NCBI GenBank assembly: GCA_040767965.1
Contig: JAXGNR010000006.1
Span: forward strand, 96,001 to 160,000
Direction of reading: 5' to 3'
Origin: Atribacterota bacterium
Lineage (GTDB): Bacteria > Atribacterota > Phoenicimicrobiia > Phoenicimicrobiales > Stramentimicrobiaceae
Length of the DNA stretch: 64,000 nucleotides
The translations under genes were made by a program, and so were the position numbers. The notes under the pieces were generated by a model. It had not been told where the DNA came from and made no database searches. It was given only the letters and a program-made list of their open reading frames with translations. Below, piece by piece: positions 7,465-32,157 of this stretch; within the stretch, counting starts at the first letter, position 1, and the number at the start of each line of letters is the position of its first letter.

Positions 7465-9126
7465 TTATTTTATTTTCTTCTCCTGCGCTTCCTGCAAAGG
7501 AAATTTTATCCCCAGTTGTTTGGCAGATATGGAAGACAGCAAATATATAGCAATATATAATAAAACTACACCTATTACTAAATCTATGATAACCGGTACT
7601 CCAATACCTGCCAGAATATAACAAATAGCTGCTATCAATGCTACAGTAAACGCATAAGGAATTTGAGTTCTAACATGATCGATATGGTCAGACCCGGCAA
7701 AAGTTGAGGACATAACTGTAGTATCAGATATAGGACTACAATGATCACCCATAACCGCACCAGTTAATACACTTGAAATTACAATAGGTAAAGCAGCTCC
7801 AACGCTTACTCCTAAAGGGATGACAATTGGGGTAACAATTGCCATAGTGCCCCAGGAAGTACCAGTTGAGATTGCCACCAGAGCTGAAACTATAAATGTA
7901 ATTATTGGTAGGATTACAGGAGATAAGAATCCTCCTAAGACTCCTACTATGTACGGAGCAGTCCCTAGCTCATCACATATACTGCCAATTGACCAGGCAG
8001 TAATTAATATTAAAGTTGCATATACCATCATCCTTGCTCCATTCATAAAAGAGTCCATAATTTCTGCTACCGAAGCAATTTTTTGAACAATATACATTAT
8101 CATTGCAATTATAAAAGAGATCAAGGTTGCCAATAGTATTGAAAACATGGAATCTGCATCAGATATAGCCTGTGAGAAAGAACCAGCCTCACTGCCTCCT
8201 CCTGTAGACCACATAAAATAAAATGATAATAATACTAATAAAACAATAGGCAACCACAGGTTTATTGGCTTTAAAGAAGCCTTTTCTGCTACTTTTAATT
8301 CTGATGTTCCGGATAAAGGTCTAGAATCTTGCGCCCAGAGTTCCCCGGTAGTTCTTGCTCTTATTTCTGCTTTTAACATTGGACCATAATCTCTACCAGT
8401 ATAAGCAATTATTCCCACCATTAGAATGGCAAAGATGGAATAAAAACTATAAGGAATACTGCTTAACCAGAGAAAATACGGGGAAACAGTGATAGTTTCC
8501 GGAAGAGCATCTCCTATTATCCCAACCTGATAGCCAATCCAGGTAGAAATAAGAAATATTGAAGAAACCGGAGCGGCAGTTGAATCTACAATATAAGCTA
8601 ATTTTTCTCTAGAAACCTGATATTTATCAGAAAGAGGACGGAATAAATTTCCAATAAAAGCTGAGTTAGCATAATCATCAATAAAAATCACAATTCCTCC
8701 TAACCAGGAAAAAAGCTGTGCCATTTTAGAATTATGAGCCTTTTTACTAACTGATTCTAAAAATGCCTGTCCTCCTCCAGAAAAAAAGATCATACCCATC
8801 AATCCGCCAACTAAAAAGAAAAAGAGAATAATACTGGCATTCCAGGAATCGGCTACGGAAGAAACTAAAGTGCTGGCTGTAGTGTTGACTCCCGCCCAAA
8901 GATTTCCACCATTCAGGATAGTACCACCAACCCAAACAGCAATAAACAAAGATATCAAAGCTTCCTTTAATATCATGCACAATGTAATAGCCAAAATAGG
9001 AGGTACTAAAGACCAGATGCCGAAGTTACCCTCAGCCACATCTTCATTTGCTCCAACGGTTATAGATAAGAACAATAGAATAAAAAATATAAAACAAAAT
9101 GTGAAAATACTTCTTTTACGAAACAT
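7465..9126 (-). CDS. NhaC-family (LysW-like) amino acid transporter
   Basis: IFIDDYAN, SREKLAYIVDSTAAP, TGTSWGT, GDHCSPISDTT and HIDHVRTQIPY motifs; multiple TM helices; lysine riboswitch upstream. Confidence 0.88.
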   Translation of the reverse strand: MFRKRSIFTFCFIFFILLFLSITVGANEDVAEGNFGIWSLVPPILAITLCMILKEALISLFIAVWVGGTILNGGNLWAGVNTTASTLVSSVADSWNASIILFFFLVGGLMGMIFFSGGGQAFLESVSKKAHNSKMAQLFSWLGGIVIFIDDYANSAFIGNLFRPLSDKYQVSREKLAYIVDSTAAPVSSIFLISTWIGYQVGIIGDALPETITVSPYFLWLSSIPYSFYSIFAILMVGIIAYTGRDYGPMLKAEIRARTTGELWAQDSRPLSGTSELKVAEKASLKPINLWLPIVLLVLLSFYFMWSTGGGSEAGSFSQAISDADSMFSILLATLISFIIAMIMYIVQKIASVAEIMDSFMNGARMMVYATLILITAWSIGSICDELGTAPYIVGVLGGFLSPVILPIITFIVSALVAISTGTSWGTMAIVTPIVIPLGVSVGAALPIVISSVLTGAVMGDHCSPISDTTVMSSTFAGSDHIDHVRTQIPYAFTVALIAAICYILAGIGVPVIIDLVIGVVLLYIAIYLLSSISAKQLGIKFPLQEAQEKKIK

Positions 9127-22426: not shown

Positions 22427-23416
22427 TCAGAAATTAAACACTTTCAATGCGGCAAAACTAACACTTGTCACAATAATTGTACCAATTATTCCTATTAGCA
22501 GTGGTTTAAATCCCAGTTTTTTAATGTAAGCAAAATCTGTTCCAAACCCTATACCTACCATACCCATCAAAATTAGAAATTTACCTATCTTCCCAAAGGC
22601 AGATATTCCTTCCGGAGTAAAAAAATCATTAGCTGCAAAAAAAGCCATTACTAAATAACCAAATAAAAACCAAGGGAAAGCACTTATAATAGCCTTTTTA
22701 CTTATCTGGTTTCTACCTGTTTCTTTTGTTTGAAAATTAAAAGAAATTAAAGCAGCTAATACAATCATAAACATATTTCTGGTAAATTTTACTATGGTTG
22801 CAATTTGACCTGCCCTTTCGCCATATATGTAACCAGTGCCAATAGTTTGGGGTGTATTATGCACAGCAGTCCCTGCCCAAACTCCAAAGAAAGTTTCATT
22901 AAGTCCTAATAATCTCCCAAGAAGTGGCATTGTTATTAATAAAAGAAAGGCAGATATAACTATAACACTAACAGCATAGCAGGTCTCCTCTTCTTTTGCT
23001 CTTATTAATGGAGATGTAATAGCAATAGCACTTCCTCCACAGATTGTAGTGCCTACTGCTAGCAACGTACTTAGCTTATCAGATAAACCAGCTTTTTTCG
23101 CTAACAGATATATTGAAAAAAATCCTACTATCATAGTTATTATTATAACCAGCAAGCTTAAAGGGATTTCCTGGGCAATTGTTAATGAAAACCCTGCCCC
23201 TAAAAAAATAATACCCCACATTAAAGGTGTTTCAAATTTTTTTAATACAAATAACCAGCTTTGCGGAAAAAGACCGACATTTCTAATTATCGCACCCAGA
23301 ATAATACCAATCATCATAGCTTCTACAGGATTAGTTCCTGCTATCACAATAATAGAAGATAGCCATCTTGAAATTATAGCTATTATGGCCATTACAATCC
23401 ATCCAATTATTAACAT
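22427..23416 (-). CDS. YeiH/UPF0324 putative sulfate exporter family membrane protein
   Basis: GTTICGGSAI, GVWAGTAVH..PQ, KFTRN and FPWFLFG motifs. Confidence 0.85.
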   Translation of the reverse strand: MLIIGWIVMAIIAIISRWLSSIIVIAGTNPVEAMMIGIILGAIIRNVGLFPQSWLFVLKKFETPLMWGIIFLGAGFSLTIAQEIPLSLLVIIITMIVGFFSIYLLAKKAGLSDKLSTLLAVGTTICGGSAIAITSPLIRAKEEETCYAVSVIVISAFLLLITMPLLGRLLGLNETFFGVWAGTAVHNTPQTIGTGYIYGERAGQIATIVKFTRNMFMIVLAALISFNFQTKETGRNQISKKAIISAFPWFLFGYLVMAFFAANDFFTPEGISAFGKIGKFLILMGMVGIGFGTDFAYIKKLGFKPLLIGIIGTIIVTSVSFAALKVFNF

Positions 23417-23490: not shown

Positions 23491-24735
23491 TTACTGTGTC
23501 AAAACTTTTCTTATATCAGATTCAATATGGGCTAAATCACTTGTAGTTGCTTTATAATTATAAGAAGTAGAAAAGACACTTAAATCTTTTAATCCGGTAC
23601 CGGTTAAAAGTAAGACAACTGAGGCTTCTTTTTCAATCAATTGACTCTCTCTCAATTTTTTGACTGCATAGAGAGAGGTTGCTGTAGCAGGTTCAACAAA
23701 ATAACCGCCTTCCCCAAATTTCTGTTGCGCTACTATAATTTCCTCTTCAGTTACACTTTCTGCTAACCATTTGTATTGTTTTGTTTTTTGGATAATTTCA
23801 TCCCCACCCATAGGATTCCCGGAGGTAATTGCTTCAGCAATAGTATGGAAGTTTGAAAAAGGAATTATATGGCCTTTGTTTTGTTTAATTGCAGAAACTA
23901 TGGGGCTGTTATTCTCTGCTTGTACTACAATCATTCTGGGTAATTTTTTTATTAATCCGGCTTCAAATAATTCTCTATAACCCTTAAAAATACCTCTGAT
24001 ATGACCGCAAGCAGAAGTAGGAACCGCAATGTAGTCCGGTACTTGGTTTTGCAGCTGCTCAAACATCTCAAAAGCAGTTACTTTATACCCTTCAGTCCTA
24101 ATTGGACCATTACCGGAAACAATCCTCAACTTAACTTTTTTGGCCAGATTAAGTACAAATTTTTTCATTTCTGAATAATCATCAGCTCTGACCTTAAAAA
24201 CATTTGCACCATGAAAAAGCATGGGATAGATTTTCTCATCAGGAGTAAATTCTGGAACAAACACAATAACCTTTATTCCTGCTTTTGCACCATATGCAGC
24301 TATAGAATGGCCCATATTGCCAGAAGAAATGGTAGCAGTAAATTTTTCTCCCATTTTTTTAGCCATATACAAAGTAGTTAGAGATCCTCTGTCTTTAAAA
24401 CTCCAGGTAGGATTTTGGGTTTCATTTTTTAAGAATAAATTTTTTATTCCGGTAAATTCTTGTAATTTTTGATTGGCTATCAATAGGCTTGTATTTCCTT
24501 CACCCAAGTTCAATGTTTCATCTTTTTCTGAGAAAAGAAGAAAATCAGAAAATCTTTGCCAGATGGTTTCACCTTCTTTAATTTTAGCTTTTTTAATATC
24601 AGGTAATAATACTTCTAATGATTCTCCTTCATCTGTAAACTCTTCGATATAATCCAAGGGAAATATTTTGTTTGTTAAAGTAGAAATCAATACTGGTTGT
24701 TTCAAATAGATATCATCTTTATTGTTAAAATCCAA
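23491..24735 (-). CDS. thrC: Threonine synthase
   Basis: LGEGNT, NPTWSFKDRG (PLP Lys), SSGNMG, EPATA and LTGTGLK motifs; in the thr operon. Confidence 0.88.
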   Translation of the reverse strand: MDFNNKDDIYLKQPVLISTLTNKIFPLDYIEEFTDEGESLEVLLPDIKKAKIKEGETIWQRFSDFLLFSEKDETLNLGEGNTSLLIANQKLQEFTGIKNLFLKNETQNPTWSFKDRGSLTTLYMAKKMGEKFTATISSGNMGHSIAAYGAKAGIKVIVFVPEFTPDEKIYPMLFHGANVFKVRADDYSEMKKFVLNLAKKVKLRIVSGNGPIRTEGYKVTAFEMFEQLQNQVPDYIAVPTSACGHIRGIFKGYRELFEAGLIKKLPRMIVVQAENNSPIVSAIKQNKGHIIPFSNFHTIAEAITSGNPMGGDEIIQKTKQYKWLAESVTEEEIIVAQQKFGEGGYFVEPATATSLYAVKKLRESQLIEKEASVVLLLTGTGLKDLSVFSTSYNYKATTSDLAHIESDIRKVLTQ

Positions 24736-24764: not shown

Positions 24765-25766
24765 TTATTGTACAAGCAATTCTGCAATCTGAACTGCATT
24801 TAAGGCTGCCCCTTTTCTTAAATTATCCGCAACAACCCATATTGCTAATCCTGGATTGAAAACAAGGTCTTTTCTTATTCTGCCAACAAATACTTCATCT
24901 CTTCCTTCTGCATATAAAGAAAGCGGATAGCAATTATGTTCAGGGTCATCTATAACCTCAATGCCTGGGAAATTATTTAATAAACCCCTTGCTTCGCTTG
25001 GTTCAATTTCCTTTTCTGTTTCAATATGTATATCTTCAGCATGTGCTCTAAAAACAGGCACTCTGGCAGTTGTAGCAGAAACGTTAATATGATCTGCATG
25101 AAGAATTTTTCTTGTTTCATTGAGCATCTTTAATTCTTCAGTTGTATATCCATTTTTTTCAAAAGAACCAATATGTGGCAATACATTAAAGGCTATCTGA
25201 TGCGGATATTCTTTTATTACTAATTCTTTTCCTTGAGAAAAAGCTTCGGTTTGATTTTTTAATTCTAAAATAGCTTCTTTCCCAGTTCCAGAAACTGACT
25301 GATAAGTAGAACAGATTACTTTTTTAATACCTACTGCATCATAAATGGGTTTTAAAGCCACAACCATTTGAATGGTTGAACAGTTAGGATTAGCAATTAT
25401 CCCCTGATGCTTAAATACATCTTCTGGATTTACTTCTGGCACAACCAAGGGCACATTTGGATCCATTCGATAATATTTTCCATTATCAATTACCACACAG
25501 CCTGCTTGCACAGCTAAAGGAGCGAAGTGTTTACTTACTTCATCCCCACCTGAGAAAAGTGCAATATCAATGCCTTGAAAAGAATTGTCTTTTAATTCTT
25601 TCACAACAATTTTTTCATCTTTAAAAAAATATTCTTTTCCAGCAGAGCGATAAGAAGCAAAAAGGTTAATTTCATTTATTGGGAAATTTCTTTCCTCTAA
25701 AATACTGGCCATTTCTTCTCCAACAGCACCAGTTGCTCCCACAACTGCTATATTAAATCTTTTCAT
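24765..25766 (-). CDS. asd: Aspartate-semialdehyde dehydrogenase
   Basis: VVGATGAVG, ANPNCSTIQ (catalytic Cys), YQSVSGTG and DNLRKGAALNAVQIAE motifs. Confidence 0.96.
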   Translation of the reverse strand: MKRFNIAVVGATGAVGEEMASILEERNFPINEINLFASYRSAGKEYFFKDEKIVVKELKDNSFQGIDIALFSGGDEVSKHFAPLAVQAGCVVIDNGKYYRMDPNVPLVVPEVNPEDVFKHQGIIANPNCSTIQMVVALKPIYDAVGIKKVICSTYQSVSGTGKEAILELKNQTEAFSQGKELVIKEYPHQIAFNVLPHIGSFEKNGYTTEELKMLNETRKILHADHINVSATTARVPVFRAHAEDIHIETEKEIEPSEARGLLNNFPGIEVIDDPEHNCYPLSLYAEGRDEVFVGRIRKDLVFNPGLAIWVVADNLRKGAALNAVQIAELLVQ

Positions 25767-26256
25767 CCTCTAACCCCTCCTTTTCTAAATTAAATTCTTT
25801 ATGAACTGCATTTACAGCTTGAGCAATATTTCTTTGATGAATAAGACAGGATATTCTAGTTCCAGATGTACTTATCATATCTATATTAATATTATTACGG
25901 GCTAGAGCTTCAAACATACGGGCAGCAATCAAAGGGTCTGATGTAATTCCGGCACCAATAATAGATATTTTAGCTACTTCTTTATCTGATAATACTTCTG
26001 GAGATTTAAGTTCCTCTGCTACCTGTTTTGAGATGGTAATTGCTTTTTCCAAATCTTCAGAGGTTACTGTAAAAGCAATGTCATTAACTTTATTGTGTTC
26101 AGCACTCTGAATAATCATATCAACAACAATATTTTCACTAGCTAGAGCTTTAAACAGTTTAGCAGCAACTCCGGGAATATCCGGGACATTTTTTATAACT
26201 ATTTTCCCCACATCTATTTCATGGGTAACTGCTCTAACATGTACTTTTTCTAACAT
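25753..26256 (-). CDS. Predicted in-frame aspartokinase beta (regulatory ACT) subunit from an internal start, 167 aa
   Basis: GGGAGGAGATACCA-ATG at 26256, in frame and just before the ACT domains, as in alpha2beta2 aspartokinases. Confidence 0.7.
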   Translation of the reverse strand: MLEKVHVRAVTHEIDVGKIVIKNVPDIPGVAAKLFKALASENIVVDMIIQSAEHNKVNDIAFTVTSEDLEKAITISKQVAEELKSPEVLSDKEVAKISIIGAGITSDPLIAARMFEALARNNINIDMISTSGTRISCLIHQRNIAQAVNAVHKEFNLEKEGLEDEKI

Positions 26257-27915
26257 TGGTATCTCCTCCCTTGTTTGTACTATAGTACCGTTACCATTAT
26301 CAAAGCTTGATTTTACTAAAATGTCAACTCCATAATTTCTAGCAATATCAATTGCACGGTGATATAACACTTTGGCTCCCAAAATAGCCATTTCTGACAT
26401 TTCATCATGGGATATTTTTTTAATTTTGCGAGCTTCAGGAACCAAAACAGGGTCAGCAGTAAAAACACCGTCGACATCTGTATAAATCTCACATCGAACA
26501 GCATGCATTCTGGCTGCCAGGGCAATAGCTGTAGTATCAGAACCTCCTCTTCCTAAAGTTGTAATATTGCCCTGTTCGTCAACTCCTTGAAACCCGGCAA
26601 CGATAACTATTTTTCCTTGGTTTAAGGCTTCTTTTGTTCGATAGTGGTTAATACTGTTAATTCTTGCTTTGGTATATGAATTATTAGTAATAATTCCAGC
26701 CTGGCCACCTGTAAAAGAGATGGCTTGTTCCCCTAATGCCTGAATCGCCATTGCGACCAGGGCAATAGAAATTTGTTCCCCGGTAGAAAGCAGCATATCC
26801 ATTTCTCTTTTTCCAGGATTAGCTAGAATTTCGTTAGATTTTTTAATTAAATCATCTGTAGTATCACCCATTGCTGAAACAACAACAATCATCTGATTAC
26901 CTTTTCTAGCCTGCTCAACTACTTTTTGGGCAATCTTTTTTATTTTATCAGTATCAGAGATGGAACTACCGCCATATTTCTGGACAATAATTGAATTGAT
27001 TTTACTACTATCTTCAATTTTAGCACCATCTGTATCCGGGTCCAATATTTTTATTTGACTTTTCACTTCAGCTTGAGAAAAAGTCTTGCGCATAATTTTT
27101 ATAATTTCGTTTTCAGCACCTTCTTTTACTAATGATATAATTGTTGGTCCGGATCCACTTAAGGCAACTCCGGCAATACCGGTTTTTTGCACTTCAGAAA
27201 ATATATTTTTTGCTCCCTTGATAAAAGGCATTCGAAAAGGCTGATGAAGGCGGTCCTGCATTGCCTCAGGAATAAGGTCCCATTTTGATTGCTGCAAGGC
27301 ATTTACCAATAATGCAGATTTGCTTAAATTATCCACAGCATCTTGCAAAGATACCTGTTTAGGTAAAACTTTACGCATCTCTGCTGTACTCAATGTAAAA
27401 GAAGGTATACCAACAACTGCCCTCAAGTCATGAGGAATATCCAATTTTACCCATTTTATTTTATCATTACTATCTTTATAGGATATTGTAAATCCTCCAA
27501 TTAAAGCTGGAACAATATTATCGAGATGGTTTTCCAGCAGATAAGCCAATTGCAGGATTTCTTCTTTGCTTAAATTAATATCAAATAATCTACTGGCACC
27601 TAATATCCCTCCAATAATGGCTGACGCACTACTTCCTAAACCTCTGGCAATGGGTATTTCGTTTTTGATTGAAATTTTAATACCATTTTCAGCAGGATTT
27701 AAGCCGGCTTTTTCCATTGCCAGACAAGCAGCTTTATATATTAGATTGTCCTTTCCTTTAGAAATTATATCTGATCCTTCACCTTCAGCTTTAAAAACAA
27801 GTCCTTTCTTAATTTTTTCCATTTTAATGTCCAGGTATAAAGATAAAGCCATACCTAAACAATCAAAACCTGACCCTAAATTAGCAGTAGTGGCAGGTAC
27901 TCTTACTTTAATCAT
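25753..27915 (-). CDS. thrB-lysC: Homoserine kinase (ThrB)-aspartate kinase (LysC/Ask) fusion protein
   Basis: aa 1-~300 form a GHMP kinase (VPATTANLGSGFD, PIARGLGSS, QDRLHQP, SGSGPT). aa ~308-720 form an aspartokinase (VQKYGGSS, VVSAMGDTTD, TTLGRGGSD, two ACT domains). Single continuous frame. Confidence 0.92.
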   Translation of the reverse strand: MIKVRVPATTANLGSGFDCLGMALSLYLDIKMEKIKKGLVFKAEGEGSDIISKGKDNLIYKAACLAMEKAGLNPAENGIKISIKNEIPIARGLGSSASAIIGGILGASRLFDINLSKEEILQLAYLLENHLDNIVPALIGGFTISYKDSNDKIKWVKLDIPHDLRAVVGIPSFTLSTAEMRKVLPKQVSLQDAVDNLSKSALLVNALQQSKWDLIPEAMQDRLHQPFRMPFIKGAKNIFSEVQKTGIAGVALSGSGPTIISLVKEGAENEIIKIMRKTFSQAEVKSQIKILDPDTDGAKIEDSSKINSIIVQKYGGSSISDTDKIKKIAQKVVEQARKGNQMIVVVSAMGDTTDDLIKKSNEILANPGKREMDMLLSTGEQISIALVAMAIQALGEQAISFTGGQAGIITNNSYTKARINSINHYRTKEALNQGKIVIVAGFQGVDEQGNITTLGRGGSDTTAIALAARMHAVRCEIYTDVDGVFTADPVLVPEARKIKKISHDEMSEMAILGAKVLYHRAIDIARNYGVDILVKSSFDNGNGTIVQTREEIPMLEKVHVRAVTHEIDVGKIVIKNVPDIPGVAAKLFKALASENIVVDMIIQSAEHNKVNDIAFTVTSEDLEKAITISKQVAEELKSPEVLSDKEVAKISIIGAGITSDPLIAARMFEALARNNINIDMISTSGTRISCLIHQRNIAQAVNAVHKEFNLEKEGLEDEKI

Positions 27916-28019: not shown

Positions 28020-29330
28020 TTATTTTGAATTGACTGACAGAACATCGTCTTCAAAAACAGGCATATAACTAATTTCTTTTACATTATTATCTTGTTTGGA
28101 TAATTTTTCCAGTATCTTCTTTAGATTTTCTTCTTCAGAATAATTAATTAAAAATCCTAAATTAGAAGTGTTGTTTTCAGATACTTTTTGAGTAAATTCA
28201 TTGACTGGTAATCCGTTTTCTATTAAAAATTCTTTATAATCTTTTTGGTTTATGCCTTCTAATTGCAGTCTGATAAAATATTTGTATTTTACTTGTTTAA
28301 ATTTATTAATTTGTAATTTCTGATACTTTTGTAAAAGATAGCTGTATTCAAAATAATCAGGATTTCTGGTAATCCTGATTATATCGCTGACCACCATGCT
28401 TCCTCCAGCTATACTACCGGCTCCTGCTCCAGAGAAAAATAAATTCCCATAACTTTTACCATACAATAGAATTCCATTATCAGCTCCGTATATTTTTGAA
28501 AAAATATGATGCTGATCTATTAATTGTGGGCGAACGCTAATTTCCACTTCGTTTTTACTTTTTTGAGATGTTGCTAAAAGCTTTATTTTATAACCAAAAT
28601 CTCTGGCTAATTGCATATCTGCGTGTTTCACTTTATCAATCCCTAAAGGATTAATTAATGAAAGATCTAAGCGGGTTCTGAATCCCAGTGATGATAAAAT
28701 AAATATTTTATAGAGTGAATCAAATCCCATTACATCCTTGAAAGGATCAGCCTCAGCATAACCCATTTCTTGAGCTTTTTTTAAAGCATCCTCTTGAGAA
28801 ATGTTTTCTTCAAACATTAAATCTAATATATAATTAGTCGTACCATTTAGTATTCCGGTTATGCTCTCCAGTGGACAAGAAGTCAACATATTAGATAAAG
28901 TACCCAGTATGGGAATAGCACTGGCAACTGATGTTTCAAACAAAAATAGAACTTTATTTTCAGATGCTATTTCCAACAATTCATACCCGTGCTTAGCTAT
29001 CAGTTCTTTATTTGGTGTAACTACATGTTTCCCTGATTGTAACGCTTTCTTTATAAAATTATAGGCCGGATATTCTCCTCCAATAGTTTCGATAATAATA
29101 TCTATCTCCGGATGTTCAATTACCTCCTGTGCTGAACTGGTAAAAAAAGGTTGGTAAATTTTTGATTCTGGTTTCCTGGTTATATCCAGATCTGCTAAAC
29201 CAACAACCTTTAATTTTATTGGTGTTATTTCCTTTTCAATAAATTCATAATTTTCTTCCAAAATTTTATAAGCACCGCCGCCAATATTTCCTAAACCTAA
29301 GATACCTATTCCTATTTCTTTTTTTTGCAT
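28020..29330 (-). CDS. hom: Homoserine dehydrogenase
   Basis: GLGNIG, HVVTPNKELIA, GILNGTTNYIL, GYAEADP and GAGAG motifs; AAGGA SD before ATG 29330. Confidence 0.93.
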   Translation of the reverse strand: MQKKEIGIGILGLGNIGGGAYKILEENYEFIEKEITPIKLKVVGLADLDITRKPESKIYQPFFTSSAQEVIEHPEIDIIIETIGGEYPAYNFIKKALQSGKHVVTPNKELIAKHGYELLEIASENKVLFLFETSVASAIPILGTLSNMLTSCPLESITGILNGTTNYILDLMFEENISQEDALKKAQEMGYAEADPFKDVMGFDSLYKIFILSSLGFRTRLDLSLINPLGIDKVKHADMQLARDFGYKIKLLATSQKSKNEVEISVRPQLIDQHHIFSKIYGADNGILLYGKSYGNLFFSGAGAGSIAGGSMVVSDIIRITRNPDYFEYSYLLQKYQKLQINKFKQVKYKYFIRLQLEGINQKDYKEFLIENGLPVNEFTQKVSENNTSNLGFLINYSEEENLKKILEKLSKQDNNVKEISYMPVFEDDVLSVNSK

Positions 29331-29382
29331 TATAAACATCCTTTTTTATTATTCTTTTTATTAGTTTTATTTGTTTGTAATT

Positions 29383-29592
29383 AAAAAAAGTCTTTCATCT
29401 CTTTAAAGACGAAAGACTTTTTCGCGGTTCCACTTTATTTTTTAAACAATAACAATATAGAAAAATAGAATATTATCAATTATATTTTTATTATTTAAAC
29501 AACTCTTTATTTGAACAAATACCTCAGGGCTGGTCTTGGGATATTTAGTATAAAACGATCAACTAAAATCCTACTCTTCCCTTCATAGGTAC
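29383..29592 (-). ncRNA. Threonine T-box leader (transcription antitermination) with short Stem I
   Basis: Minus strand: Stem I TACCTATGAAGGG-AAGAGTA...CAAG-ACC-AG-CCCTGAGGTA (ACC specifier at 29532-29534); T-box AAAGTGGAACCGCG (29423-29436); terminator AAAAGTCTTTCGTCT...AGATGAAAGACTTTTTTT. Confidence 0.85.
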
Positions 29593-29615
29593 ATTAAATC
29601 AATAAATTTTCTGTA

Positions 29616-29644
29616 ATTCTATCATTGAGATTTTGTTTTGTCAA
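29616..29644 (-). promoter_or_regulatory. sigma70 promoter of the thr operon
   Basis: TTGACA (29639-29644), N17, extended TGnTAGAAT (29616-29624). Confidence 0.75.
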
Positions 29645-29682: not shown

Positions 29683-31560
29683 TCATTCAATCCATTCCAG
29701 ATCCAGCTCTGCCAGCTTGGCTTTGGTTGGAACTCCATTTTCATCCCAGCCCTGCATGGCATAGTAGGTTTGAAGGGCCTGGTTGAATTCTTCTTTATCA
29801 ATGGCCTTGTCTTTTAAAGGACCGCTGGTAAAGGCCTTGAAGATACGATCCGGTAATTTATCATCTTCTTTGGTGAATCCTTCTCTGTTGTTGAAGCAGC
29901 GGGCCATAGTCTGAGATTTTTCACCAATCTTGATCAGTTCAAATAAGCTGGTATTCCAGCCGGTTACTGCTTCTACCAAAGAAACCAGGTTTTTAAGGCT
30001 CAAAGCTCCACTTGGTGCACCGGTAAACATACATAAACAAATACAGTTGTACAGACTCCAGAGCCTCTCAGTATAAGTATTAAATCTTACTTTTTGATTA
30101 CTTAGATCCAGAGGATTAACTGGTTCCAGTAATCCTAAAGGCATCACAGATTCCAGAGGATATCCGTAATCAGCAAACATCGGATCATGAGGCATTTCCA
30201 TATGATCTGCTCCGGTTGGAGAGATGGCATACTGTAATCCTACGTTGACCTTTCCTCTTGGTTCATGCATGGGAAATTCCTGTCCCTTGACATGCATGGC
30301 ATACTGTTCTGCCCCTTTGCCGAATTCCTGGGCAGCTTTGGCTACGCCTTTGGCTAAGGTGGCTCCTATTCCATCTAAGTTGTAGATCTTTTCGATCATC
30401 TCTAACATGGCATCAGCATTGCCGAATTTCAGCTGGATGCCGTCGGTGTCTTTTTCGGTGATGATGCCTTCTTCGAAGCATTCCATGGCAAAGGCGATGG
30501 TGGTGCCGGTGGAGATGGTATCAAGTCCGTATTTGTTGCACAGCTCATTACCTTTGGCAATGGCCTCAAGATCATCTATGCCCAAGAGAGAACCCAGGGA
30601 ACCGATGGTCTCATATTCAGGTCCTCCGTAATAGGGATCCACATCATAGCGTCCTTCCACTTTGACTTCTCTTTTGCAGCGGACCGGACAGGCATAGCAG
30701 TGGCCGCGGCGGACTAAGATGGTCTCAGCCATGGTAGGTCCCGAGATGGCAGAGGCACCTTCAAACTGGCCTTCCCGGAAGTTGCGGGTAGGCAGGATAC
30801 CGGCTGCGTTTAAGGATTCTACTCCTCTGGCGGTACCGTAATCGTGCATGCCCTGGGAGACTTGTTTCCAGTTGAGGGCAAACTCCTTGGTAATCTCTTT
30901 GATCTTGTCTGCATCATGGTAGGGGTTCTTGCCTGAGGCGCGTACAGCAATGGCCCGCAGTTTCTTGGAGCCCATGACTGCTCCCAGGCCTACTCGGCCG
31001 TTGTAATGTTTGGATTCATTGCTGATGCATGCATAGTTGATCAGCTTTTCTCCGGCCGGGCCGATCTGGGCTATTCTGATCTTATCATCTCCCAATTCTT
31101 CACGGATCATACGCTCGGCCTCTCCGGTGGTCTTGCCGGTTAAGGATGCGGCATCACGTAACTCTATCTTGTCATCCTTGATCCACAGGTAGACGGGCTT
31201 GGGGGAGATGCCTTTGATGATGATGGCATCATAGCCGGCCCATTTGAACTCAGGGGCCCACCAGCCTCCGGCTTCTGCTTCTCCGAAGCCTCCGGTTAGA
31301 GGGGATTTGGCTGCTACGGTGTAGCGGCTGGCTCCCGGGACGGTGGTACCGGTAATGGGACTGCAGGCAAAGACTAAGATGTTCTCAGGGCCTAAGGGAT
31401 CTACGCCCTTGGGCATCTCTGAAAGTAAGAAGTAACTGGCCAGGGCGCTTCCTCCCAGGTACTTGCGGTAGATGAGCTCTGGTAAGACTTCTGTTTTGAT
31501 TTCACCTTTGGAGAGGTCTACTCTGATGATCTTACCATTATAGGGTTTCTTTTCTGACAT
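29683..31560 (-). CDS. aor: Aldehyde:ferredoxin oxidoreductase (W/Mo-pterin)
   Basis: AKSPLTGG, RVGLGAVMGSKKL, CYACPVRC, GPEYET, GLDTISTG and HEPRG motifs; AAGGAGG SD before ATG 31560. Confidence 0.93.
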   Translation of the reverse strand: MSEKKPYNGKIIRVDLSKGEIKTEVLPELIYRKYLGGSALASYFLLSEMPKGVDPLGPENILVFACSPITGTTVPGASRYTVAAKSPLTGGFGEAEAGGWWAPEFKWAGYDAIIIKGISPKPVYLWIKDDKIELRDAASLTGKTTGEAERMIREELGDDKIRIAQIGPAGEKLINYACISNESKHYNGRVGLGAVMGSKKLRAIAVRASGKNPYHDADKIKEITKEFALNWKQVSQGMHDYGTARGVESLNAAGILPTRNFREGQFEGASAISGPTMAETILVRRGHCYACPVRCKREVKVEGRYDVDPYYGGPEYETIGSLGSLLGIDDLEAIAKGNELCNKYGLDTISTGTTIAFAMECFEEGIITEKDTDGIQLKFGNADAMLEMIEKIYNLDGIGATLAKGVAKAAQEFGKGAEQYAMHVKGQEFPMHEPRGKVNVGLQYAISPTGADHMEMPHDPMFADYGYPLESVMPLGLLEPVNPLDLSNQKVRFNTYTERLWSLYNCICLCMFTGAPSGALSLKNLVSLVEAVTGWNTSLFELIKIGEKSQTMARCFNNREGFTKEDDKLPDRIFKAFTSGPLKDKAIDKEEFNQALQTYYAMQGWDENGVPTKAKLAELDLEWIE

Positions 31561-32157
31561 AATATATGCCTCCTTTAAATTAGAACTAGGTGTTTTTTTA
31601 ATTTGTCTTAGACTTTTTATACATAATTTTTTCATTTGTTTATCTTTTAATTTTTATAAACAATTATTCATAATAATAAAAAGTATTAATTTATTGTTTA
31701 TTGTTGATTAAATAAAACTCATCTAATGTGGGATTTGATTAGCAATTGCTATTATATATATTTATTCTATTTTTAATAATTCAGCAAAAAAATAAAAAAG
31801 CAGAATTTCAACATAAACATTTTTAAATATTTTCTTATTTTTATTAGAAAAATGTCATTATTAGAATACATTATTCATTTTTAATTTTGCACTAAAATAT
31901 TAAAAATAGAATGTTGTTAAATAAACAATAATTTCATATTTTTCATTAACACACTAAGTTAAATTAATAACACTTTTCTATTTTTTTGTCAAATCAGACA
32001 ACCCTCATAGTAAGGGGAAAAATTCATTCTGCTTTTTTATTTTTCAAATACCTGATATAAACAATCATCCTATATAATGCTCTGCTATATTACAAAAATA
32101 ATATTGTGACAAATTAATGCATTAATATCATAATTATTGCAATACTGCACTATATTG

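Follow-up and report, generated by a model that had tools for sequence, protein, structure and literature searches.

Homoserine kinase fused to aspartokinase in an Atribacterota threonine operon, with a predicted internal start for a beta subunit

The aspartokinase fusions ThrA, MetL and Ask-LysA are textbook cases in which one isozyme is allotted to each end product, and the operon that encodes ThrA is controlled by a leader peptide. The alpha2beta2 aspartokinases have a separate beta chain made up of nothing but the ACT pair, which binds the ACT pair of the alpha chain. Here we describe thrB-ask, a gene of an Atribacterota bacterium in which a homoserine kinase (ThrB) is fused N-terminally to an aspartokinase (Ask). 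It lies in a 64,000-nt stretch of DNA (assembly GCA_040767965.1, contig JAXGNR010000006.1, positions 96,001 to 160,000), the whole of which we call the window; coordinates are positions in the window and residue numbers refer to the 720-aa ThrB-Ask protein, while f1 denotes the Atribacterota family to which the window belongs and f2 its sister family. Our preferred reading, to which we assign a probability of about 0.65, is that thrB-ask encodes a bifunctional enzyme and gives rise to two products that would assemble as a (ThrB-alpha)2 beta2 particle, in which the two kinases would be coupled both in amount and in their response to threonine.

The architecture of the encoded protein provides the starting point for this reading. 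The first-pass annotation, made from the sequence of the window alone, had described a single-frame fusion in place of two abutting genes, with no methionine at the start of the aspartokinase, and both points were borne out: thrB-ask is one 720-aa open reading frame (ORF) with two complete halves, the same frame recurs in 13 f1 genomes, and no in-frame ATG, GTG or TTG occurs in the 20 codons around the junction (residues 293-312). The junction runs from ...DPDTDGAKIE at the end of the homoserine kinase through DSSKINS to IIVQKYGGSS at the start of the aspartokinase. Pfam places GHMP_kinases_N at residues 57-141, GHMP_kinases_C at 206-280, AA_kinase at 309-535, ACT at 576-624 and ACT_9/ACT_7 at 643-708. 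The thrB equivalog model TIGR00191 scores 286.2 bits against a cut-off of 168.25, with residues 2-301 covering model positions 1-302 of 304; TIGR00656 (asp_kin_monofn) scores 417 bits against 402.25 over residues 308-710, and NF005155 gives the fused protein 527.6 bits against a cut-off of 346. Taken separately, the two halves are ordinary members of their respective families. Both expected motifs are present in the ThrB half, namely PIARGLGSSAS at residues 88-98 and ANLGSGFD at 11-18, and we take P-x-x-x-G-L-G-S-S-A to be the GHMP phosphate-binding motif and A-N-L-G-S-G-F-D the N-terminal substrate motif of ThrB. Across 33 fused proteins the residues GLGSS 92-96, H130/D132/N133, K313/G315/G316 and GRGGSD 455-460 are invariant, as are those of the two ThrB motifs. 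In a whole-genome scan (genome estimated to be 98% complete) the ThrB half was the sole thrB above cut-off, at 288.7 bits; because the fused gene holds the only such thrB, this half must work if the pathway does. It is very probable that the gene encodes a functional enzyme with both activities, homoserine kinase and aspartokinase, serving the threonine branch.

Assignment to that branch is aided by the genome's only other aspartokinase gene, ask2, which lies on another contig and is 30% identical to the fused copy. It belongs to an operon ordered lysine riboswitch, lysA, dapF, LL-diaminopimelate (DAP) aminotransferase (dapL), ask2, dapA, dapB (Table 1). Because this second aspartokinase lies in a lysine-riboswitch operon of dap and lys genes, the fused copy is taken as the threonine-branch isozyme, and from the gene content the two branches each appear to have a dedicated aspartokinase and a dedicated RNA sensor. 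The lysA ORF of the lysine operon (284 aa) matches model positions 145-415 only, and nothing but short ORFs occurs in the stretch of roughly 600 nt that separates it from the riboswitch; the N-terminal third of lysA may be frameshifted or mis-assembled.

Within the aspartokinase half, a strong internal Shine-Dalgarno (SD) sequence precedes the ATG of Met554, from which an ACT-pair protein could be translated in frame with the parent gene (Table 1). A GGAG-type SD core and an ATG are present at this site in all 22 informative loci of f1 and f2. The residues encoded at the SD site differ between the families (TREEIP in f1, IKE[AV]xx in f2), and since the SD core is kept while the encoded residues change, the pattern points to selection on an RNA signal. 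The solved chains nearest to the Ask half are 3l76, 5yei_C and 3aaw_A, and the first residue of the solved beta chains 2dt9_A (167 aa) and 5yei_D (164 aa) corresponds to query residue 554-555. Met554 aligns to residue 250 of the Corynebacterium glutamicum alpha chain, which is where the beta subunit of that enzyme begins. The second dip in confidence of a full-length structure model falls at exactly residues 550-554. We consider it probable that a free beta chain is made in addition to the 720-aa chain.

If so, the gene would give rise to ThrB-alpha (720 aa) and to beta (167 aa), and these two chains could assemble in the manner of the alpha2beta2 aspartokinases into a (ThrB-alpha)2 beta2 particle. 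The fusion would set homoserine kinase at a copy number equal to that of the aspartokinase alpha chain and would put it next to the ACT effector sites; the first step of the pathway and the committed one of the threonine branch would then share expression and respond jointly to threonine. A review names homoserine kinase as a target of threonine feedback (PMC10464499), which makes a shared sensor plausible. Direct channelling between ThrB and Ask is unlikely, because aspartate-semialdehyde dehydrogenase (Asd) and homoserine dehydrogenase (Hom) act between the two steps. The same expectation had been drawn at the outset from the non-consecutive position of the fused activities (steps 1 and 4), and it stands in so far as two other enzymes do intervene; the joining of non-consecutive steps is not, however, unusual for this pathway, as ThrA joins steps 1 and 3.

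The gene stands in an operon whose minus-strand order is promoter-like site, reduced T-box leader, hom, thrB-ask, asd, thrC (Table 1). Because the total of 37 promoter-like sites in the region is not above that of shuffled sequences (mean 32.4), the promoter is called on position and quality only. By the model alignment, the specifier loop of the T-box leader, CAAGACCA, carries ACC (Thr) and the conserved purine at the specifier position; the T-box core reads AAAGUGGAACCGCG with the core element GUGGAACCGCG, and Stem II is seemingly absent. T-box matches occur at the same place 5' of hom in four of the six f1 relatives with long flanks, at 48-57 bits, and the two f1 alignments that were printed give GAAAACCA and CAAGACCA, both with ACC and both seemingly without Stem II. 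In f2, eight of nine loci searched have matches of 74-94 bits, two of which pass the gathering score (93.7 and 93.3), and both printed alignments show GAAGACCA with ACC at the specifier. With a T-box leader and an ACC specifier both here and in relatives, uncharged tRNA-Thr is the most likely signal for switching on the operon. The first-pass annotation mentions neither this T-box nor the second aspartokinase nor the conserved internal start. A thrC gene was not found after asd in the six long-flanked f1 relatives, which means that its place in the window does not hold generally. Flanking the operon are a Cons_hypoth698 (PF03601) membrane protein downstream (22427-23416, minus strand) and an aldehyde:ferredoxin oxidoreductase upstream (29683-31635, minus strand). 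In the related locus L034 of Candidatus Stramentimicrobium fermentans, asd is followed at a distance of about 1 kb by a molybdenum/tungsten cofactor riboswitch (8222-8338, 70.7 bits).

Table 1. Features of the thrB-ask gene and its operon in the window, and the lysine-branch operon elsewhere in the genome
Feature	Position	Strand	Details
thrB-ask	25753..27915	-	one ORF, ATG start, 720 aa
ThrB (homoserine kinase) half, residues 1-300	27016..27915	-	SD AAGGAG 7 nt 5' of ATG; TIGR00191
Linker DSSKINS, residues 301-307	26995..27015	-	7 residues in the window protein
Aspartokinase half (alpha chain), residues 308-720 and stop	25753..26994	-	AA_kinase and two ACT; TIGR00656
Internal SD AGGGAGGAG	26263..26271	-	6 nt 5' of the Met554 ATG (SD to ATG, 26271-26254)
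Predicted beta-subunit ORF, Met554 to stop	25753..26256	-	167 aa, ACT pair only; in frame with thrB-ask
Sigma-70-like promoter	29616..29644	-	TTGACA, 17-nt spacer, TG-extended TAGAAT (TTGACA-17-TGnTAGAAT); 11/12 positions, best match of the region
Reduced T-box leader	29402..29595	-	RF00230, 38.5 bits, E 3e-7
T-box terminator hairpin, then U run	29382..29420	-	AAAGUCUUUC ... GAAAGACUUU; read from sequence, overlaps the 3' helix of the T-box alignment
hom, homoserine dehydrogenase	28020..29339	-	439 aa; Pfam Homoserine_dh, NAD_binding_3; NF004976 387 bits vs cut-off 205
asd, aspartate-semialdehyde dehydrogenase	24765..25766	-	333 aa; start overlaps thrB-ask end by 14 nt; TIGR01296 473.5 vs 324.2
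thrC, threonine synthase	23491..24735	-	414 aa; TIGR00260 196.7 bits vs cut-off 167.1
Lysine-riboswitch operon	L105 (G000 contig C4:64000-79000), 3085-9915		riboswitch 101.9 bits vs gathering score 30

A search of 41 related genomes, in which the frames were then read, gave an account of the fusion within f1, a family of 22 genomes including this one. Thirteen of these, again including this one, contain an uninterrupted thrB-ask frame, at 73-81% identity and with the first stop at codon 714-721. In three more (G010, G004 and G016) contig-end fragments cross the junction without a stop, as recorded in the genome-search table only, and one (G011) retains a C-terminal piece only. Stops flagged inside five f1 matches turned out to be the natural stop at codon 715, past which the alignment had run. 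The linker, flanked by LDPDxDG and IIVQKYGG, varies in sequence and is 7-8 residues long in all 13 full copies. For the five f1 genomes without thrB-ask (G001, G005, G007, G013 and G014) we found no other thrB-like match above 25% identity, and a second aspartokinase is present in all of them except G001. G005 and G013 are the two genomes of a single genus, with a completeness of 96% for one, and threonine synthesis may have been lost in that genus. Among the 120 clusters listed from a collection of 5.8 billion proteins (90% clusters), 36 are f1-like fusions of 713-722 aa. Records of close relatives carry the names uncultured Atribacterota, Candidatus Oleihabitans oleiphilus and Candidatus Stramentimicrobium fermentans, and the runs that hold this stretch are labelled as landfill, leachate, digester, bioreactor, wastewater, biofilm and soil metagenomes.

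The sister family f2 offers a view of the unfused state. In nine of 11 inspected f2 loci, thrB ends in a stop codon and is followed by a spacer of 118-324 nt and an ask gene with its own SD and ATG (MN[KED]I...). Of the other two, one has asd after thrB and one (L014) is unreadable, its apparent fusion having been rejected on finding that the junction is a run of unread bases. The order hom, thrB and ask (fused or not), asd is common to f1 and f2, and the simplest history suggested by these loci is that an operon which already had the order hom-thrB-ask-asd lost the stop of thrB, the spacer and the start of ask. The linker codons are rich in purines, and in 12 of 13 f1 loci a glycine codon stands at the centre; one weak idea is that the linker could be a relic of the old ask ribosome-binding site, but its spacing does not match the f2 SD. 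The f2 spacers themselves (L013, L015-L022) are poorly conserved, seemingly with short direct repeats (aattgg-type and cgactattcactattcac motifs), and gave no Rfam match at E <= 0.1. A thrB directly 5' of ask is also found in Chloroflexota, Peptostreptococcus and metagenome-assembled genomes (MAGs) of Bacillota. In two Dehalococcoidia / Chloroflexota MAG loci (L078, 3974-6148; L083, 3986-6157) thrB and ask share a frame and are separated by a single in-frame stop codon, so that one mutation would fuse them. Of 17 metagenome loci with matches to both ThrB and the ACT pair, 15 have a thrB frame that closes ahead of the first aspartokinase motif, with the ACT match some 1.2 kb beyond.

Fusions of this type are not confined to f1. 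Among the best 150 of 1.84 billion 50%-identity representatives, the ThrB-Ask clusters are P0020 (the window's own), P0122 (708 aa), P0123 (736 aa) and P0124 (800 aa). Grouped with the last three are the Bacillota-named MAG proteins P0042 and P0047, the proteins P0046 and P0048, and the single-frame loci L036 (Bacillota) and L037 (Symbiobacterium sp.); the label Bacillota for this second group rests on the names of P0042, P0047, L036 and L037 only. Its genes adjoin thrC and not hom and asd. In an aspartokinase tree of 60 rows (quick LG+G4) the second group forms one clade (support 99), sister (95) to f1, f2 and one unfused protein (99), and a ThrB tree of 39 rows gave no resolution at this depth. 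Two events are needed either way, namely two fusions or one fusion followed by fission in f2. As the operon contexts and linkers differ, we lean towards two independent fusions. A fusion of homoserine dehydrogenase N-terminal to a monofunctional-class aspartokinase, the reverse of the ThrA/MetL order, occurs in P0143 (723 aa) and P0145 (824 aa). The initial remark that no characterised ThrB-Ask fusion was known holds to the extent that a full-text literature search, with most subscription journals and supplements outside its scope, found no paper on one. The architecture itself, by contrast, is already present in public databases under the name 'aspartate kinase' (many Atribacterota MAGs, Bacillota and Symbiobacterium MAGs, and unnamed clusters).

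A further arrangement joins homoserine kinase to the regulatory part of aspartokinase. The protein P0231 and 30 further clusters (31 among the 120 listed; 477-491 aa, 48-100% identical to P0231) consist of a full ThrB and an aspartokinase-type ACT pair with no AA_kinase domain, and the organism names attached to them are Synergistaceae and Aminivibrio only. Identity between such a protein and that of the window is 42% in ThrB and 36% in the ACT pair. Two related metagenome contigs carry thrC, thrB and then a separate ACT-pair gene of 152 or 167 aa. Both arrangements give indirect support to the suggestion of the first-pass annotation that threonine feedback might be shared through the ACT domains. 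A structure model of the ThrB-ACT protein, built from a 16-row alignment, was too poor for use, with a mean predicted local distance difference test score (pLDDT) of 54.9 and a predicted template-modelling score (pTM) of 0.40. Homoserine kinase and the ACT module are thus associated in four forms: fused to the alpha chain, beside ask, fused to a beta-like pair, and beside a beta-like gene. Because the beta ACT pair binds the alpha ACT pair in alpha2beta2 enzymes, ThrB attached to either chain would, by analogy, sit in the same particle. It is conceivable, although on the whole improbable, that ThrB is a built-in part of an alpha2beta2-type aspartokinase particle that has been tethered at least twice by different routes, through the alpha N-terminus in Atribacterota and some Bacillota and through the beta-like ACT pair in Synergistota (where related contigs have a stand-alone ACT-pair gene beside thrB), both routes leading to a ThrB-alpha-beta assembly with one set of ACT effector sites governing both kinases. 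If true, a single ACT set over the kinase of pathway entry and the committed threonine kinase would represent a new allosteric design for a textbook pathway.

Two alternatives would leave no bifunctional enzyme to explain. The junction could be an artefact, two genes having been joined by a sequencing or assembly error, and public Logan contigs do break near the linker: in four runs they end or start at about 26998-27038, and in the three studies covered (X2, X3 and X4) no contig bridges the linker by 31 letters on both sides. The contigs otherwise reproduce both halves, with 0-1 differences in most pieces (six differences and one gap in X3 record 24), and one of them, X4 record 29 (26849-27023), runs through the whole linker with no difference and extends fewer than 31 letters on the ThrB side; the check for reads across the junction that the first-pass annotation proposed, carried out on contigs only, thus gave a contig spanning the linker and none with a long bridge on both sides. 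The breaks suggest co-occurring strains that differ in this most variable stretch. It is the comparative evidence that excludes the artefact, since separately assembled genomes share the frame: 13 of them, from several genera, have linkers different in sequence and alike in length, none has a stop and restart at the junction, and the f1-like clusters come from several sources. We regard an artefact as next to impossible. Alternatively, one half could be degenerate: ThrB or Ask would have lost catalysis and be retained for a regulatory or structural role. Nothing specific supports this here beyond its being conceivable for any fused enzyme. Both halves exceed equivalog cut-offs, their signature residues do not vary among the fused proteins, and the genome, which retains hom and thrC, has no other thrB; a degenerate half is therefore hardly credible.

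The remaining alternatives accept the enzyme and differ on what the fusion does. In the more serious of these, the fusion is neutral: the spacer between two co-transcribed genes was lost, the halves work independently on a flexible tether without shared regulation or a defined particle, and resplitting would need several changes. Such an origin is easy to envisage when thrB followed by ask is common in many lineages, when the Chloroflexota loci stand one in-frame stop from fusion and when f2 manages without it, and the short, variable, low-confidence linker would suit it. Retention speaks against neutrality, as the fusion has been kept throughout f1 at the identities given above with no reversion in 13 full copies, and a second fused clade exists; moreover, the Synergistota proteins, which have dropped the kinase domain and kept the ACT module in clusters reaching down to 48% identity, are hard to explain by co-expression only. 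We therefore hold a neutral fusion to be possible and distinctly the less probable account. In a scaffold or metabolon, the other option raised in the first-pass annotation, the fusion would instead seed a complex with Asd and Hom, and perhaps ThrC, for passing on aspartyl phosphate and aspartate semialdehyde. Aspartyl phosphate is labile, all five pathway genes share one operon, and asd overlaps the end of thrB-ask; nothing, however, shows contacts with Asd or Hom, the Bacillota fusions adjoin thrC without hom or asd, and ThrB-ACT proteins that have no aspartokinase catalytic domain are a misfit for a channelling role, making a scaffold very improbable.

A number of observations count against the coupled (ThrB-alpha)2 beta2 enzyme that we favour. 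The full-length model has confident domains with a pTM of 0.68, and suits a flexible tether as well as a defined particle; its pLDDT falls below 50 at residues 303-305 in the linker, whose sequence is not conserved. The use of the beta start is a prediction from its signals, and no RNA run is among the runs listed as holding the stretch, the two labelled RNA-Seq being marked as probably DNA. The window's T-box match lies below the Rfam gathering score of 93, and thrB-ask is missing from five of the 22 f1 genomes, by loss or incompleteness. Five of eight C. glutamicum feedback positions, as given in the consulted table of a review, are identical in the fused protein and three differ, a pattern from which threonine or lysine specificity is not readable. 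That the fusion exists because of stoichiometric coupling and threonine coupling through the ACT sites, as opposed to being a neutral tether, has about even odds in our judgement.

In summary, our analysis presents homoserine kinase as an uncharacterised third fusion partner of aspartokinase, so far seen only in MAGs and metagenome contigs. It outlines a design with two isozymes, in which one aspartokinase lies under a lysine riboswitch with dap and lys genes and the other, fused to ThrB, under a threonine T-box. The unfused state of f2 in the same operon offers a natural before-and-after pair for judging the benefit of the fusion. Control of homoserine kinase by the ACT module as well, if it exists, would amount to a new mode of regulation and might serve as a design for engineered threonine production; otherwise the gene is a neat but ordinary Rosetta-stone fusion.

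Comparison with described enzymes places the protein close to several systems and apart from each. Against the alpha2beta2 aspartokinases (C. glutamicum LysC, 3aaw/3ab4; 5yei; regulatory subunits 2dt9, 2dtj) the Ask half aligns end to end with E values of 1e-108 to 1e-110, shares the layout of AA_kinase followed by two ACT domains, and has its predicted internal start where the solved beta chains begin. The alpha chain of the window differs in having a complete homoserine kinase at its N-terminus. Like ThrA and MetL of gamma-proteobacteria, the window protein combines aspartokinase with a non-consecutive enzyme of the threonine branch, in a thr operon and dedicated to one end product. A survey of proteobacterial ask-hom genes argues for regulatory benefits of the ThrA-type fusion and not for channelling (PMC1885841). 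Unlike in ThrA and MetL, where the partner is a C-terminal dehydrogenase, the partner here is an N-terminal homoserine kinase, the aspartokinase is of the monofunctional class, and the operon lies under a T-box.

The distinction from both known classes of Ask fusion, with homoserine dehydrogenase and with DAP decarboxylase, was anticipated in the first-pass annotation and agrees with scores far below the cut-offs of both. For the aspartokinase-homoserine dehydrogenase families, NF006959 gives 243 bits against a cut-off of 726 and NF007003 149.2 against 582, and the protein has no Homoserine_dh domain. The Ask-DAP decarboxylase fusion (NF006515) likewise joins aspartokinase to a late enzyme of one branch, but that branch is lysine, and the window protein scores 142.7 bits against its cut-off of 802. 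The ThrB-ACT proteins of Synergistaceae and Aminivibrio resemble the window protein in joining homoserine kinase to the aspartokinase regulatory module and are, like it, uncharacterised; they differ from it in lacking AA_kinase and in carrying ThrB on a beta-like module, where the Atribacterota enzyme carries it on the alpha chain.

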